Positions 2,983 through 5,689 of a stretch of DNA of 5,689 bases are shown piece after piece. The stretch is from a virus (lineage: Duplodnaviria; Heunggongvirae; Uroviricota; Caudoviricetes). The notes below the pieces were generated by a model. The model was not told where the DNA came from. It was given only the letters and a program-made list of their open reading frames with translations, and made no database searches. Within the stretch, counting starts at the first letter, position 1, and each line of letters begins with the position of its first letter. The translations under genes and the position numbers were made by a program. The stretch lies in the IMG/VR virus record IMGVR_UViG_2579779116_000017, one strand, 5' to 3'.

Positions 2983-3002
2983 CGCGTTCCGGAGTGATAG
3001 CC

Positions 3003-3272
3003 ATGAGCGAACAGTACCTGATAACGCTCGACGAGTGGAAACCCAAACGGTTCAGTCTCCCAATAACAAACACTACCCTGGTGAAATACGGAAAACTAGG
3101 ATACATCGTTCCAAGACCACAAAAAATTCGAGGGCGTTGGCTGATAGATCGCCGGGCAGTATTTGTTGGACCTGGTGAAACGGGAATTGCGCCAGAAATT
3201 CATACTGGCGATGATGATGCACTGAAGGAGATTTTAACTCATGTCACCGAGGCCACGAAAAAACAGCACTGA
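3003..3272 (+). CDS. xis: Excisionase / excisionase-like DNA-binding protein (89 aa)
   Basis: Small ORF immediately upstream of and overlapping the integrase gene, as in lambda. ATG 3003 is preceded by GGAG at 2991-2994 with an 8 nt spacer. The N-terminal sequence MSEQYLITLDEWKPKRFSLPITNTTLVKYGKLGYIVP resembles the excisionase-like family as I recall it. The track start GTG 2994 is less likely. Confidence 0.7.
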   Translation: MSEQYLITLDEWKPKRFSLPITNTTLVKYGKLGYIVPRPQKIRGRWLIDRRAVFVGPGETGIAPEIHTGDDDALKEILTHVTEATKKQH

Positions 3273-4359
3273 CGTAGCCGGTCTTTACGAAAAGTTTGAT
3301 CGCAGAACTGGCAGGGTTTACTACCAGTATAAAAACCCTGTGACTGGAAAATTTCACGGTCTCGGAACAGACAAAGGCAAAGCAGAAAAAATCGCTTCCA
3401 CAGCCAATCAGCGAATAGCTGCAGCAGAAGCTGAATATTTCATGCGCAAAATTGATGAAAGTCCGTCAGCAACAAAACGTCGGGGTATCAGATTAAAGGC
3501 ATGGGTTGATCGATATCTGAAAATACAGGACGCGCGACTGAAAAATGGAGATATTGCAGCTACAACTCACAAAGAAAAAGCCCGAATGGCTGCATACCTG
3601 GTTTCCCGTCTGGGAAACCACCCATTGAAAGAACTGGAAGTAAGAGACTTTGCATTAATACTGGATGAGTGGCTGGATAAAGACATGGTCAGCACAGCGA
3701 GAGTAAATCGTGGATTATGGGTTGATATTTATAAAGAAGCACAGCATGCAGGGGAAGTTCCTCCTGGATGGAATCCTCCGGAGGCCACCCGCAAACCGAT
3801 CCCTAAAGTCAGCAGAGCCAGACTCACCCTGGAAGACTGGCAAAAAATTTATAATGCAACGCCAGAAAAACACTTTATCCGTAACGCAATGCTTCTTGCG
3901 ATTGTTACTGGTCAGCGCCGTGATGACATTTGCCACATGCGTTTTTCAGATGTATGGAACGAACACCTGCATATCACCCAAGGGAAAACCGGAATGCGTC
4001 TGGCGTTACCGCTTACGCTACGCTGTGATGCCATTGGGATATCGCTAAAAGAAGTGATTGATGGATGCAAGGACAGAATATTGAGTCCATACCTGATTCA
4101 TAGTCGGCACCAGAAACAACCAAAACCAATGAGTAAAGATAACCTGAGCGACTACTTTGCTAAAGCGCGGGATCTGGCAGGAATAACTCCACCAGCAGGA
4201 AAAACACCACCAACATTTCATGAACAACGTTCCCTGTCAGAACGGCTGTACCGAGCACAGGATGTCGATACAAAAACATTACTGGGGCATAAAGTCCAGG
4301 CAACCACCGATCGCTATAACGATACTCGAGGTCAGGAATGGGTTAAGTTGGTTGTTTGA
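3241..4359 (+). CDS. int: Lambda-family tyrosine site-specific integrase (372 aa)
   Basis: Conserved catalytic residues line up with lambda Int: R in IVTGQRRDD, K in QGKTGMRLALP, H-x-x-R in TFHEQRSLSERL, H in LLGHK, and Y in TTDRYNDTRGQEW. The N-terminus (YYQYKNPVTGKFHGLGTDKGKA) resembles the lambda Int arm-binding domain. Strong RBS AAGGAG at 3225-3230, 10 nt before ATG 3241. The gene overlaps the xis 3' end by 32 nt. Confidence 0.95.
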   Translation: MSPRPRKNSTDVAGLYEKFDRRTGRVYYQYKNPVTGKFHGLGTDKGKAEKIASTANQRIAAAEAEYFMRKIDESPSATKRRGIRLKAWVDRYLKIQDARLKNGDIAATTHKEKARMAAYLVSRLGNHPLKELEVRDFALILDEWLDKDMVSTARVNRGLWVDIYKEAQHAGEVPPGWNPPEATRKPIPKVSRARLTLEDWQKIYNATPEKHFIRNAMLLAIVTGQRRDDICHMRFSDVWNEHLHITQGKTGMRLALPLTLRCDAIGISLKEVIDGCKDRILSPYLIHSRHQKQPKPMSKDNLSDYFAKARDLAGITPPAGKTPPTFHEQRSLSERLYRAQDVDTKTLLGHKVQATTDRYNDTRGQEWVKLVV

Positions 4360-4385
4360 CAAAAATAACCATCCGGGATTATAGT
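4356..4385 (+). promoter_or_regulatory. Near-consensus sigma70 promoter (TTGACA-N18-TATAGT) overlapping the int stop codon
   Basis: Exact -35 hexamer TTGACA at 4356-4361, then an 18 nt spacer and TATAGT at 4380-4385 (5 of 6 matches to TATAAT). Predicted transcription start is around 4392. Confidence 0.45.
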
Positions 4386-4391
4386 CTGCGC

Positions 4392-4468
4392 ACGCCAGCA
4401 AAATCTGGCGTCGGGATTGGCGTCCCGGATAGAAACCGCGACAGACACACGCCGCGAGTGTGTTTTTT
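4392..4468 (+). ncRNA. Candidate small RNA (~75 nt, three hairpins) bounded by the promoter and an intrinsic terminator
   Basis: Hairpin 1: CGCCAG-caaaat-CTGGCG (4393-4410). Hairpin 2: CGGGA-ttggcg-TCCCG (4412-4427). Hairpin 3 is the terminator. No RBS or plausible start codon lies inside. Not matched to any sRNA I know, so this is purely a structural prediction. Confidence 0.3.
4445..4468 (+). terminator. Rho-independent terminator (int-operon terminator and/or sRNA 3' end)
   Basis: ACACAC (4445-4450) pairs with GTGTGT (4458-4463) around a 7 nt loop GCCGCGA, followed by a T-run at 4463-4468. The stem is short (6 bp), so strength is moderate. On the - strand no U-run follows. Confidence 0.5.
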
Positions 4469-4567
4469 ATTGTCGTATGCGCACGCACATCTGAATTATG
4501 GTGGGCTGTGTGGGGGCACCGAAAGGTGCGCCGGTTGGTTTCCCGGTTACGCCAACCCTGCACAGTT

Positions 4568-4598
4568 CACCACCAGACGATTGGCGTCGTCGGTGGTG
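4568..4598 (+). other. Long stable stem-loop (12 bp with one bulged A, hexaloop TTGGCG) in the int-distal part of the intergenic region
   Basis: CACCACC (4568-4574) pairs with GGTGGTG (4592-4598). The inner stem is GACGA (4576-4580) with TCGTC (4587-4591), and the loop is TTGGCG (4581-4586). Same loop sequence as hairpin 2 of the candidate sRNA. Confidence 0.4.
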
Positions 4599-4629
4599 AG
4601 TTATTTAGAAACCACCCGAGGGCGTCATT

Positions 4630-5184
4630 ATGACAACTCAAATCTCTGTTGAAACTCTCTCCCCGATCACTCATAACCAGATCCCTGTTATTACCACTGA
4701 ACTTTTGGCGCAGCTTTACGGTACAGAAGCGATTCGCATTCAGCAAAATCACAAACGCAACTCGGATCGCTTTGTTGAGGGAAAGCACTTTTTCAAAATT
4801 GTGGGTGAGGAGCTAAAAAATTTGCGACTATCTTTAAGAGAGTCACAAATATCTCCCAAAACCCGCTCGCTCATCCTCTGGACAGAACGCGGAGCAGCCC
4901 GCCACGCCAAAATGCTGGAAACCGATCAGGCGTGGGAAGTGTTCGAAAAACTGGAAGACTGTTATTTCAATAAGAAACAACCTCCAGCATCGCCGCAAAC
5001 CACATCAGTTGCCGGTTGTTCGGTGTTGATCCATTTCAATAGCCACGGTCAGGTTGAGTTCACGGAAAAAGTCCCAGCCGACGCAATGGTGTGCACCCTG
5101 GAGCGTTTTAAGTTTTATCTGGAACAGCAAGGCTGGATAGTTGCCCGTAAGGAGCAACTGTTAGAAAGGTTAATGTCGCTTTAG
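4630..5184 (+). CDS. Phage regulatory protein with N-terminal Bro-N/ORF6N/Rha-like (antirepressor-type) DNA-binding domain (184 aa)
   Basis: ATG 4630 is preceded by GAGG at 4619-4622 with a 7 nt spacer. The N-terminal region ITTELLAQLYGTEAIRIQQNHKRNSDRFVEGKHFFKIVGEELKNL...LILWTERGAARHAKMLETDQAWEVFEKLEDCYF matches the conserved pattern of the ORF6N/Rha family as I recall it. The C-terminal ~70 aa are not recognised. Confidence 0.8.
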   Translation: MTTQISVETLSPITHNQIPVITTELLAQLYGTEAIRIQQNHKRNSDRFVEGKHFFKIVGEELKNLRLSLRESQISPKTRSLILWTERGAARHAKMLETDQAWEVFEKLEDCYFNKKQPPASPQTTSVAGCSVLIHFNSHGQVEFTEKVPADAMVCTLERFKFYLEQQGWIVARKEQLLERLMSL

Positions 5185-5191
5185 CTAATGC

Positions 5192-5215
5192 AAAAACCCC
5201 GGCATAGCCGGGGTT
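5192..5215. terminator. Bidirectional Rho-independent terminator between convergent genes
   Basis: GC-rich 7 bp stem CCCCGGC (5197-5203) with GCCGGGG (5207-5213) and loop ATA. It is flanked by AAAAA (5192-5196), which gives a U-run on the - strand transcript, and by TT on the + side. It sits between stop codons at 5184 (+) and 5222 (-). Confidence 0.7.
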
Positions 5216-5221
5216 CGGAGA

Positions 5222-5689
5222 CTAATCTTGATCAGGTTCCTGCTTAGAATAATGTTTTCCAACAATAAATGCCGTAACCAATGCAACAAGATCTACTGAA
5301 ACGAGTGTTACAGCAAGACCTGTTTGTCCCCTCGCGCCAAAAAAGACGGCTGCCAGTATGATAATCAGCGCAATACAGAAAGCCATTTTCTGACCATTTC
5401 TTGTGATCTTTATACTATCAGCGACTGTTTTATGGCGATGAGCTTGCTCTTTTTCCGTCAATTCAACGAGTCGATTTGCAAGCCCAGGAATCAATTGCTC
5501 ATACTCTTTCAGCATTGATGGCGGAGGAACCGGCCCCTGAAAATGCTGGCAAACAATGGCTCGCCCTTGCGGGCTATCCAAAACCCGATTTAAAACCTCT
5601 GGATTCTCGATTACTCGAGAAACCAGTTCGTTATCTTTTTGTTCTTCACTGGTGAGTTCAGCATTCTCACTTTCTTTTTGATCTGGCAT
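5222..5689 (-). CDS. Small membrane protein (155 aa): acidic soluble N-terminal domain plus C-terminal two-helix transmembrane hairpin
   Basis: ORF begins at the window edge (reverse complement ATG at 5687-5689) and stops at 5222. The C-terminus has two hydrophobic segments, MAFCIALIIILAAVFFGA and LAVTLVSVDLVALVTAFIVG, separated by RGQTG. The N-terminus is Glu/Asp-rich. Promoter and RBS are outside the window. Confidence 0.7.
   Translation of the reverse strand: MPDQKESENAELTSEEQKDNELVSRVIENPEVLNRVLDSPQGRAIVCQHFQGPVPPPSMLKEYEQLIPGLANRLVELTEKEQAHRHKTVADSIKITRNGQKMAFCIALIIILAAVFFGARGQTGLAVTLVSVDLVALVTAFIVGKHYSKQEPDQD

Follow-up and report, generated by a model that had tools for sequence, protein, structure and literature searches.

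Downstream of int in the 5,689-nt stretch of viral DNA analysed here (the window), two hairpins present the same loop, TTGGCG, on different stems, raising the question of why the loop should be identical while the stems are not. Reading of the sequence confirmed both hairpins, CGGGA (4412–4416)/TTGGCG/TCCCG (4423–4427) and GACGA (4576–4580)/TTGGCG/TCGTC (4587–4591), where an initial sequence-only reading had placed them. The 10-mer GATTGGCGTC occurs exactly twice in the window, starting at 4415 and 4579, and GGCGTC occurs on the + strand at 4407, 4419, 4583 and 4621, as had been claimed; the only two other copies in the window lie on the − strand. Analysis of 2000 dinucleotide-preserving shuffles of 4400–4630 yielded some exact 10-mer repeat in 41, some hexamer with four copies in 10, and four copies of GGCGTC in none. 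Across the whole window, six copies of GGCGTC were found against 2.23 expected, with six or more reached in 4 of 200 shuffles. The shuffles and the whole-window count thus bear out the claim that the repeats exceed chance.

The analysis that follows indicates that the two hairpins are very probably a1 and a2, the target sites of an antisense RNA of the C4 type, within an immI/isrK-type module controlling the translation of an antirepressor-like gene. This kind of system is already known, being a prophage RNA switch of the phage P1 c4/Salmonella Gifsy-1 IsrK type. Three Rfam families (isrK, c4-a1b1 and C4) were detected above their gathering thresholds and in canonical order. The stretch had been labelled an intergenic region, a description now replaced by that of an RNA module of the P1 immI/Gifsy-1 isrK type, comprising a promoter, an IsrK-like RNA, a C4-like RNA and an ORF6N gene, with all features of the module on the + strand.

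A sigma-70-type promoter is predicted at 4356–4385 (TTGACA, 18-nt spacer, TATAGT; 11 of 12 matches), with its −35 hexamer overlapping the int stop codon. Its −35 and −10 elements align with those of the Gifsy-1 isrK and the P1 P1c4/P51b promoters. It is followed by an IsrK-like leader or small RNA at 4392–4468 (Rfam isrK RF01394, 73.4 bits against a gathering threshold of 50, E = 7e-15), consisting of a 5' hairpin (4392–4411), the a1 hairpin (4412–4427) and an intrinsic terminator, for which the terminator scan revealed a stem (4443–4450/4458–4465) and a U run. The scans thus found three marks of an isrK locus, namely a covariance score above the gathering threshold, a promoter of its own and an intrinsic terminator. 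The a1 hairpin, the first of the two hairpins, displays the a1 word UUGGCGU (4417–4423) in its loop, complementary to the word a', ACGCCAA (4549–4555), and lies within a match to c4-a1b1 (RF03163, 4379–4431, 51.9 bits against 46.7). The adjoining b1 word, GAAACCG (4432–4438), aligns with the annotated b1 of P1 and is complementary to the C4 loop UGGUUUC (4536–4542), one G-U pair included, with a b1:b' duplex energy of −8.4 kcal/mol.

The gene for the C4-type antisense RNA spans 4494–4577 (Rfam C4 RF01695, full-length match, 72.5 bits against a gathering threshold of 45, E = 3e-13). The mature RNA is predicted to comprise 4500–4574 by homology with P1, whose ends were taken from the GenBank annotation and an alignment. 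Minimum-energy and centroid folding of 4500–4574 gave a long closing stem and two hairpins (−44.6 kcal/mol, z = −4.39), with b' in the second loop (4535–4542) and a', the word complementary to both TTGGCG(T) loops, in a single-stranded junction, matching the fold of the C4 family. In this fold the 3' end is an ACC overhang next to an acceptor-like stem.

The second hairpin (4576–4591) is the top of a longer helix at 4568–4598 (−22 kcal/mol, z = −5.45), with a lower stem of CACCACC/GGUGGUG and the a2 word UUGGCGU (4581–4587), again complementary to a', in its loop. The 5' arm of this lower stem doubles as the 3' strand of the C4 closing stem, which puts the two folds in competition. The b2 word, GAAACCA (4608–4614), forms a b2:b' duplex of −8.9 kcal/mol and aligns with b2 of P1, a site overlapping the ribosome-binding site of icd. 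The downstream C4 target site is thus found next to the ribosome-binding site of an antirepressor-type gene, although the 7-nt b2 adjoins the Shine-Dalgarno sequence GAGG (4618–4621), ending 3 nt upstream, whereas in P1 and many relatives b2 overlaps it. The gene that follows (4630–5184) encodes a 184-aa ORF6N-domain protein (Pfam ORF6N, E = 6e-23) with 53% identity over its full length to Gifsy-1 STM2616/AnrP, and is the putative regulated gene, an antirepressor-like AnrP homologue. An Rfam scan of the window detected no isrJ downstream of the module. A match to PsrR1 at 5192–5258 (23.9 bits, gathering threshold 42) was dismissed as a terminator hairpin.

Co-variation of the target words was analysed in a wide sample of 107 unique related modules, carrying 16 different a' words. 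The exact complement of a module's own a' was present upstream in 96 of 107 modules and downstream in 103 of 107, compared with 27 of 1605 upstream and 2 of 1605 downstream comparisons (<2%) for non-cognate a' words. Three-way co-variation of the words was observed over 14 lambdoid phages and P1. Since the b words are out of register in the alignment, the b sites were scored by longest complement rather than column by column, revealing median matches of 8 nt for cognate and 5 nt for non-cognate b':b1, and of 9 nt and 4 nt for b':b2; 47 distinct b2 words were present among the 107 modules. ArgO145, for example, belongs to a different a class (GTTCGAA), and E. coli M8 to a different b class (CCTTTTT). 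Complementarity of a'/b' to both a1/b1 and a2/b2, co-varying over phages, is a mark of C4 RNAs and was found here.

The sequence-only reading had called for an alignment of relatives and a test for compensatory changes. When these were carried out on 56 sequences with 500 shuffles, the co-variation was found to lie between the loops and a'. For a1:a', 97.2% of cells were paired, with 98 double changes against 24 ± 7 after shuffling; for a2:a', 94.0% were paired, with 88 double changes against 20 ± 8. None of the 500 shuffles reached 98 or 88, respectively, and no more than 44% of cells were paired in slid controls. The differing stems had been read as a covariation-like pattern; they are not homologous positions, as the hairpins are paralogues that both present a single target word. 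Relatives show hardly any change in the a1 stem CGGG/CCCG, and the innermost A-U 'pair' assigned to it is part of the target word, while the a2 hairpin has a nearly invariant lower stem and an upper stem that varies with its pairs kept. The suggestion of a repeated RNA structural motif holds in outline, both hairpins being RNA elements with the same loop, but the reason is a shared a' partner and not selection on the fold as such. We conclude that the loops are identical because a single 7-nt word, ACGCCAA, in the C4-type RNA encoded between them has to pair with both. The loop word is a specificity determinant, which explains why the two hairpins share it although their stems can diverge.

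The enrichment of GGCGTC is real, but only its two middle copies belong to a functional conserved element. Copy 1 (4407–4412), which forms the 3' arm of the 5' hairpin of IsrK, and copy 4 (4621–4626), in the Shine-Dalgarno–ATG spacer, appear incidental, as neither co-varies with a' as a C4 target, and copy 4 is present in only 11 of 69 TTGGCGT-class modules. Both were rejected as extra C4 sites, not being conserved with the a' word.

The location of the module, with xis and then int directly upstream, is compatible with a role for the repeats as DNA sites for proteins, as integrase arm-type sites, Xis sites or a repressor operator flanking attP, and lambda-type integrases with an Arm-binding domain are known to use short repeated arm sites. 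This explanation is nevertheless highly improbable. BLAST comparison of the window with E. coli VG48B2 and E. coli M8 delimited the whole cassette (−10 box, IsrK, C4 and ORF6N gene) to approximately 4369–5164, and the block of ~796 bp that contains the repeats is absent from the related VG48B2 prophage, which retains a homologous int; its flanks, the DUF2335 gene and int, compared over its 3' end, are 91% identical to the window. Related prophages either have or lack the cassette at this place between int and the DUF2335 gene, and in other phages the same module occurs far from int, in the nin region or after Q. The prophage-host junction adjoins potC, past the DUF2335 gene and another small gene, ~0.7–1 kb beyond the window end. 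The repeat word also changes in step with a word of the C4 RNA, behaviour that a protein site would not show. The proposed arm sites are therefore not supported, given the cassette's absence beside a homologous int, the distant junction and the placement of the module elsewhere in other phages. Similar sequence is present in 2621 of the 5426 complete E. coli genomes, with as many as 7 sites in a single genome, but we give virtually no credence to a REP-like dispersed host repeat, or to a repeat that arose by chance and has no connection with the prophage. These matches cover the full 247-base module, and in all ten E. coli matches listed an ORF6N- or P22AR-type antirepressor-like gene lies under the match, so that what recurs is whole modules by antirepressor-type genes in prophages, and not short palindromes dispersed between core-genome genes, the generic host repeat that the sequence-only reading had named as a refuting case. 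The 10-mer occurs just twice in the window, and chance is excluded by the shuffles and the co-variation.

Two further explanations act at the RNA level. The a2 loop UGGCGUC (4582–4588) could pair, G-U pairs included, with GGCGUCA (4621–4627) at the ribosome-binding site, masking the Shine-Dalgarno sequence and making the GGCGTC repeats a lock in cis. The minimum-energy fold of the processed leader (4575–4640) forms exactly this helix between a2 and copy 4, and the a2:RBS duplex energy is −10.3 kcal/mol here against a family median of −7.1. Across the family, however, the mean a2:RBS energy is −6.1 kcal/mol for cognate and −5.6 for non-cognate combinations, giving no signal. In addition, ArgO145 and PhiR12_2 have a changed a2 and retain GAGGGCGT at the ribosome-binding site, while in the syntenic module of E. 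coli M8 a2 is retained but GGCGTC is lacking there. The self-pairing lock, which we regard as improbable, was rejected on this lack of a family-wide energy signal and on the poor conservation of copy 4. A stronger, though still unlikely, candidate is a purely cis-acting role for the hairpins as alternative mRNA structures, with identical loops since a1 and a2 compete for a' in one transcript, and with no processed C4 acting in trans. In the minimum-energy fold of the full leader, a1/b1 is paired with a'/b' in cis (4413–4438 with 4536–4558) and the extended a2 hairpin uses the 3' strand of the C4 stem; four strands, GGUGGGC (4500), CACCACC (4568), GGUGGUG (4592) and ACCACCC (4611), are mutually exclusive in pairing. 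Pairing of the middle of IsrK with the 3' part of the orf45/STnc1160-like segment, characteristic of isrK, was likewise found by folding and co-variation, and the Gifsy-1 work accounts for regulation by cis structures A and B with IsrK in trans, invoking no C4-like repressor (PMC4825925). Minimum-energy cofolding of C4 with its targets showed no net gain, because loop-loop (kissing) contacts fall outside this model, and short-duplex energies were used instead. Against an action purely in cis, a stable processed species of ~80 nt, STnc1160, arises from exactly the corresponding segment in Salmonella (PMC4825925), the RNA fits the P1 C4 family, down to an acceptor-like stem and an ACC(A) 3' end, and repression by C4 in trans via a2/b2 is established for P1 and P7 (P1 annotation; PMC12197685). 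The choice between the two concerns the mode of action alone, and leaves the identity of the loops unchanged.

The IsrK-C4 pair was present in every phage locus retrieved, three modules occur in tandem on one viral contig, and the closest module among the matches listed, with 99.6% identity, is from E. coli RM8082. Public phage records often label the RNA region as a hypothetical protein-coding sequence. The ORFs over the RNA here (GTG-ORF 4460–4633 and ATG-ORF 4498–4599) were rejected as the primary function, because their length and frame are not conserved; poor conservation of ORF length and frame over the RNA is also stated in the Gifsy-1 study (PMC4825925).

A working mechanism can be proposed by analogy with P1 and Gifsy-1. 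The promoter at 4356–4385 would drive a leader from ~4392, containing a1 and b1 followed by the terminator. As in P1 c4, the read-through transcript would be processed by an RNase P-type cut 5' of G4500, releasing C4, which would dock on a2 and b2 by loop-loop contacts and cover the ribosome-binding region, keeping the antirepressor off and, as in P1, maintaining lysogeny and immunity. As in Gifsy-1 IsrK, upstream a1/b1 could pair with a'/b' in cis, the pairing seen in the full-leader fold, and so lock the long transcript, while the short terminated a1/b1 RNA may pair in trans as a decoy, relieving the block and turning the antirepressor on (PMC4825925). The loop word would set specificity, as in P1 versus P7 heteroimmunity. 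For the direction of control, with C4 repressing and the IsrK-like RNA serving as an anti-repressor decoy, this scheme draws on two separate model systems, P1 and Gifsy-1, that have yet to be reconciled by experiment. Co-expression of the orf45/STnc1160 region in Gifsy-1 did not relieve IsrK toxicity, and arrest was more pronounced (PMC4825925), an outcome that fits poorly with a simple C4-repressor picture.

We tentatively suggest that the IsrK/C4 modules of lambdoid prophages may form one three-RNA circuit, in which the C4 antisense repressor, the guarded a2/b2 target and a terminated a1/b1 RNA that titrates C4 as a decoy operate together, and in which combinations of a and b words could form an RNA 'barcode'. 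The 107 modules contain at least 16 a and 47 b words, a single E. coli genome can have up to 7 modules, and three lie in tandem on the viral contig mentioned above, so that the words could act combinatorially. If true, such a circuit would unify 'C4 represses' (P1) and 'IsrK activates' (Gifsy-1), treated separately in the papers cited here, and the barcode could set which co-resident prophages silence or induce each other's antirepressors. For the window, the stretch after int takes on the meaning of a mobile regulatory cassette for antirepressor expression, and hence prophage induction, and not of an att arm or junk. Co-variation of two short words at three positions in more than 100 modules makes a textbook case of RNA-RNA specificity, and the words may offer a way into the cross-talk among Stx and other lambdoid prophages that share a host.

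Among known systems, immI of P1 and P7 (RF01695, RF03163) shares with the window module the order of promoter, a1, b1, C4 (with b' in a loop and a' in a junction), a2, b2 and ribosome-binding site, the a sites in hairpin loops, the acceptor-like C4 stem and an antirepressor-class target gene, together with words that vary from phage to phage and determine specificity. The P1 c4 antisense RNA, with its a1, b1, a2 and b2 targets upstream of icd-ant, was reportedly described by Citron and Schuster in 1990; it is processed by RNase P using the acceptor-like stem and ACC(A) 3' end, and the principle of RNA-RNA specificity through loop words has been known since the P1/P7 work of that year. The P1 GenBank record annotates a1, b1, c4, a2, b2 and icd in the same order as in the window module, and in the alignment the TTGGCGT loops fall on the P1 a sites. 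Start-to-start distances are 14 nt in P1 and 15 nt here for a1-b1, and 29 nt and 27 nt for a2-b2. The words differ, being TTGGCGT/GAAACC here and TTGACAG/GTTAGTG in P1. The window module has no icd, the ORF6N ORF starting where P1 icd starts. Unlike P1, it has an efficient-looking intrinsic terminator between a1/b1 and C4, and its carrier is an integrated lambdoid prophage whereas P1 is a plasmid prophage.

The Gifsy-1 isrK-orf45-anrP locus (RF01394) shows 81% DNA identity over the region and has the same a word, and its promoter, IsrK hairpins, terminator, C4-like segment (STnc1160) and 53% identical AnrP homologue are all shared. The compensatory mutants by which Gifsy-1 IsrK was tested, G28A/C162U and G31A/C159U (Hershko-Shalev et al. 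2016, PMC4825925), correspond to the experimentally verified pairs G28-C162 and G31-C159, which map to the window a1:a' pairs 4419/4553 and 4422/4550. A further mark of isrK loci is binding of the short RNA to Hfq, with activation of anrP in trans. The b word differs, being TCACCG/GGTGA in Gifsy-1 and GAAACC here, as does the upstream neighbour, antQ in Gifsy-1 and int here. In Gifsy-1, the 45-codon upstream orf45, with its AUGA overlap, is needed for translational coupling of anrP (PMC4825925). The corresponding ORF here has 33 codons (ATG 4498, stop 4597–4599) and ends 31 nt before the ORF6N ATG, without the overlap, which occurs in 6 of the 107 modules.

More distant parallels are found in the immunity of satellite phage P4 (CI RNA, seqA, seqC), where a processed small RNA likewise lies between upstream and downstream complementary target copies, and which the IsrK authors named as a structural analogue (PMC4825925). 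Neither Rfam nor sequence comparison revealed a P4 match to the window, and P4 immunity acts by premature transcription termination of replication genes, compared with the control of antirepressor translation proposed here. In P22 sar/ant, a small RNA also acts against translation initiation of an antirepressor, with sar blocking that of ant (PMC12197685); sar is a cis-antisense RNA from the opposite strand, whereas the regulator in the window module is encoded on the same strand as its target and would recognize it through short loop words.

The two hairpins described in the sequence-only reading are present as claimed, CGGGA/TTGGCG/TCCCG at 4412–4427 and GACGA/TTGGCG/TCGTC at 4576–4591. The 10-mer GATTGGCGTC recurs exactly at 4415 and 4579, with no third copy within the window, and GGCGTC occurs four times on the plus strand, at 4407, 4419, 4583 and 4621. 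The repeats of 4400–4630 exceed chance: among 2000 dinucleotide-preserving shuffles of this 231-base region, none gave four copies of GGCGTC, in line with the excess that had been proposed, while 10 gave four copies of any hexamer and 41 any exact 10-mer repeat.

An Rfam search of the window returned three adjacent matches above the curated gathering scores, all on the plus strand: c4-a1b1 (RF03163) at 4379–4431 (51.9 bits vs 46.7), isrK (RF01394) at 4392–4468 (73.4 bits vs 50) and C4 antisense RNA (RF01695) at 4494–4577 (72.5 bits vs 45). A near-consensus promoter (TTGACA, 18-nt spacer, TATAGT) occupies 4356–4385 and an intrinsic terminator 4443–4468. Lambda-type xis (2994–3272) and int (3241–4359) lie upstream, and an ORF6N-domain gene (4630–5184) followed by a convergent DUF2335 gene lies downstream of the RNA genes. 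Over its full length, the product of the ORF6N gene shares 53% identity with AnrP, an antirepressor-like protein encoded at the isrK locus of Gifsy-1. Region 4400–4630 thus belongs to an antisense-RNA immunity module of the P1 c4 / Gifsy-1 isrK kind, with the two hairpin loops as its predicted target sites a1 and a2, upstream and downstream of C4.

Further left, 1–2941 holds dicB (1–189), a DUF1482/ydfD-like gene (132–377) and a gene (434–2941) whose 835-aa product bears an Rv2179c-like 3'-5' exonuclease domain at its C terminus, a set typical of the early-left regions of Qin/Rac-like lambdoid prophages. In the gap where the ORF6N and DUF2335 genes converge, a G+C-rich hairpin at 5192–5258, AAAAACCCCGGCATAGCCGGGGTT, with a sub-threshold PsrR1 match, is probably a bidirectional terminator.

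The P1 GenBank record gives the order promoters P51a/b, a1, b1, the 77-nt C4 RNA, a2, b2, icd and ant1/2, with a1/b1 labelled as putative C4 target sites and a2/b2 as 'repression of icd ant translation'. In the P1 sequence the a word is TTGACAG and the b word GTTAGTG; P1 C4 carries b', TCACTAAC, in a hairpin loop and a', CTGTCAA, directly 3' of it. In an alignment of the window with 13 lambdoid phage loci and P1 (15 sequences), both TTGGCG(T) loops aligned with P1 a1 and a2, and ACGCCAA at 4549–4555 with P1 a'. A second pair of sites, absent from the sequence-only reading, aligned with P1 b1 and b2: GAAACCG at 4432–4438 and GAAACCA at 4608–4614, both complementary to UGGUUUC (4536–4542), a hairpin loop of C4.

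Across the 15 sequences, the a and a' words change together at all three places. TTGGCGT is matched by ACGCCAA in the window, Gifsy-1, phi330 and others, TTCGAAC by GTTCGAA in ArgO145, TTAGCAC by GTGCTAA in YYZ-2008, TTTGCAC by GTGCAAA in Stx2_14040 and PhiR12_2, TCGCAG by CTGCGA in Stx2_EH2246, and TTGACAG by CTGTCAA in P1; the b words vary in nearly all of the phages, each matching the b' of its own module. When viral contigs were scanned for the conserved frame of C4 and the results pooled with the phage loci, 107 unique modules were obtained, in which a' took 16 different 7-mer forms and b2 47 distinct ones. A perfect reverse complement of the module's a' lay about 80 nt upstream of C4 in 96/107 modules and 6–7 nt downstream in 103/107, vs 27/1605 and 2/1605 for non-cognate a' words. 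The longest Watson–Crick match to the C4 loop region had a median of 8 nt cognate vs 5 nt non-cognate for b1, and 9 vs 4 nt for b2. Pair counts were made on a 56-sequence alignment with 500 shuffles per test: for a1:a', 97.2% of cells were paired, with 98 double-change cells vs 24.3 ± 7.0 shuffled, and for a2:a', 94.0%, with 88 vs 20.4 ± 7.8. None of the 500 shuffles reached the observed value in either test, and slid-register controls for a1:a' paired at most 44% of cells. Compensatory changes among aligned relatives are thus far above shuffled levels, giving direct comparative proof at the sequence level that the loop common to both hairpins is an RNA–RNA pairing word. Both loops track the a' word in C4 across relatives, which bears out in outline the earlier suggestion of a repeated RNA motif.

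As a functional set, the GGCGTC repeats stand only in part: copies 2 and 3 are a1 and a2, whereas copies 1 and 4 do not track a'. Copy 1 (4407) forms the 3' arm of the first hairpin, at the 5' end of IsrK, and copy 4 (4621) lies between the Shine–Dalgarno sequence and the ATG. In the 38 modules with other a words, their own a core appeared at the copy-1 position in none and at the copy-4 position in one, and GGCGTC was still found there in 5 and 4, respectively. Among the 69 TTGGCGT-class modules, copy 1 was present in 18 and copy 4 in 11; in the syntenic E. coli M8 module, GGCGTC occurs at the two a sites only. GGCGUC could also pair with itself through G–U, joining a2 to copy 4 over the ribosome-binding site, and this pairing does form in the minimum-energy fold of the processed leader. 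It was rejected as a family feature, since the mean a2:ribosome-binding-site energy barely differs between cognate and non-cognate combinations (−6.1 vs −5.6 kcal/mol).

The predicted fold of C4 (4500–4574; −44.6 kcal/mol, z = −4.39) places b' in the second hairpin loop and a' in an unpaired junction, with a 3' ACC overhang, and the IsrK-like RNA is predicted to form a 5' hairpin, the a1 hairpin and the terminator. Hairpin 2 is the tip of a longer helix at 4568–4598 (−22 kcal/mol, z = −5.45) with the lower stem CACCACC/GGUGGUG; the closing stem of C4 uses this CACCACC as its own 3' strand, so that the two folds would compete. The differing stems had been taken as covariation-like, a view that fails because the hairpins are two paralogous scaffolds showing one word, at positions that are not homologous. 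In relatives, two stems, CGGG/CCCG of a1 and CACCACC/GGTGGTG, are near-invariant, the a2 upper stem is variable with pairing mostly kept, and the innermost A–U of hairpin 1 (4416/4423) does not persist as a pair, T4423 belonging to the target word and tracking a'; this pattern argues against covariation. Four mutually exclusive strands, GGUGGGC (4500–4506), CACCACC (4568–4574), GGUGGUG (4592–4598) and ACCACCC (4611–4617), make up an attenuator-like chain that joins the C4 fold, the a2 hairpin and the hairpin adjoining the Shine–Dalgarno sequence.

Public phage records carry protein-coding genes ('hypothetical protein', 'transcriptional regulator') annotated across the IsrK and C4 RNA genes, for example L002:1590–1763, L008:432–1268, L007:438–1580 and L011:683–1345 among the compared records, and window 4460–4633. 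The cause is probably a long open frame from the C4 5'-end ATG, which in 58/107 modules stays open for at least about 180 nt, beyond the downstream start position. Over all 107 modules the ORF from this ATG either ends after between 11 and 47 codons or stays open, a variation in length that fits RNA rather than protein. In the window, the ATG of the 33-codon ORF (4498–4599) ends at G4500, the predicted mature C4 5' end, so RNase P-type processing and ORF translation would be mutually exclusive; its TGA stop lies inside the conserved GGUGGUGA.

Together, the promoter -10 box, the IsrK and C4 RNAs and the ORF6N gene make up a block that related potC-adjacent E. coli prophages either carry or lack at the site between int and DUF2335 (window 4369–5164; L015:5868–5880; L016:6785–7640). 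A related prophage, in E. coli VG48B2 (L015), has about 11 bp in place of 4369–5164 (about 796 bp); it retains both int and the DUF2335 gene, and its flanks (int end, DUF2335 gene) are 91% identical to the window. E. coli M8 (L016) has the block, with the window's a word and a different b word (AAAAAGG/CCTTTTT), and its prophage end adjoins potC, beyond the DUF2335 gene and one further small gene. By this comparison 4369–5164 is a mobile prophage cassette; the 5192–5258 hairpin lies just outside its right boundary. Elsewhere, the module lies after Q in Gifsy-1 and in the nin region in phi330, YYZ-2008 and phi419. The proposal of integrase arm-type sites does not survive the absence of the block beside a kept int in VG48B2, the position of the prophage end in M8 and the other locations of the module. 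The module is present in 293 phage records and in 2621/5426 complete E. coli genomes, with as many as 7 sites in one genome. A REP-like host repeat was rejected, since the IsrK–C4 pair was found in 13/13 fetched phage loci and the feature under the E. coli match was an antirepressor-type gene in 10/10 among the matches listed.

On the minus strand of IMGVR_UViG_2671181028_000005 (L039:9289–11266), three complete IsrK/C4 modules stand in tandem, 656 bp apart (C4 at 9712–9792, 10368–10448 and 11024–11104), with differing a' words (CTGCGAA, GTTCCAA) and a short gene after each; the three may form an array of antirepressor-type cassettes with different addresses. In two Stx-type phages, sRNA-Xcc1 (RF02221) scored above its gathering score downstream of antirepressor genes (L002:2235–2318, L004:1562–1645).

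Comparison of sequences establishes the architecture of the module and its pairing words, and the steps of its action can be proposed from known systems. P1 C4 is processed by RNase P. The C4 repression model rests on the P1 annotation and, reportedly, on work by Citron and Schuster in 1990. By analogy with P1, a read-through transcript would be cut 5' of G4500 to release C4, which would dock on a2 in its loop and on b2 beside the Shine–Dalgarno sequence, blocking ribosome binding to the ORF6N gene and keeping the antirepressor off. By analogy with Gifsy-1, a1/b1 would pair with a'/b' in cis as 'structure A', which the whole-leader minimum-energy fold reproduces, and the short terminated IsrK RNA would pair in trans to activate antirepressor translation. 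The Gifsy-1 compensatory mutants G28A/C162U and G31A/C159U (PMC4825925) map to the window a1:a' pairs 4419/4553 and 4422/4550, respectively.

As in P1, the a word is shown in the loops of two separate scaffolds, and start-to-start distances are close (a1 to b1, 15 nt vs 14 nt in P1; a2 to b2, 27 nt vs 29 nt). Unlike in the models, the window has no icd gene, its b2 abuts the Shine–Dalgarno sequence without overlap, and its 'orf45' equivalent has just 33 codons (ATG 4498, TGA 4597–4599) and does not overlap the ORF6N start. The papers compared here handle the P1 'C4' and Gifsy-1 'IsrK' models apart (PMC4825925; PMC12197685): the IsrK study likens its locus to P4 CI/seqA/seqC and its text has no occurrence of 'bacteriophage P1' (PMC4825925), and a 2025 review gives c4 and IsrK as separate items (PMC12197685). 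We infer that a1/b1, acting as a decoy for C4, could reconcile the two models. Co-expression of orf45/STnc1160, the Gifsy-1 segment matching the C4-like part, worsened IsrK toxicity (PMC4825925), which calls for caution on the decoy reading. The finding is fully accounted for by a known system; its wider point lies only in how extensively and cleanly the words co-vary and in the possible unification of two published models.
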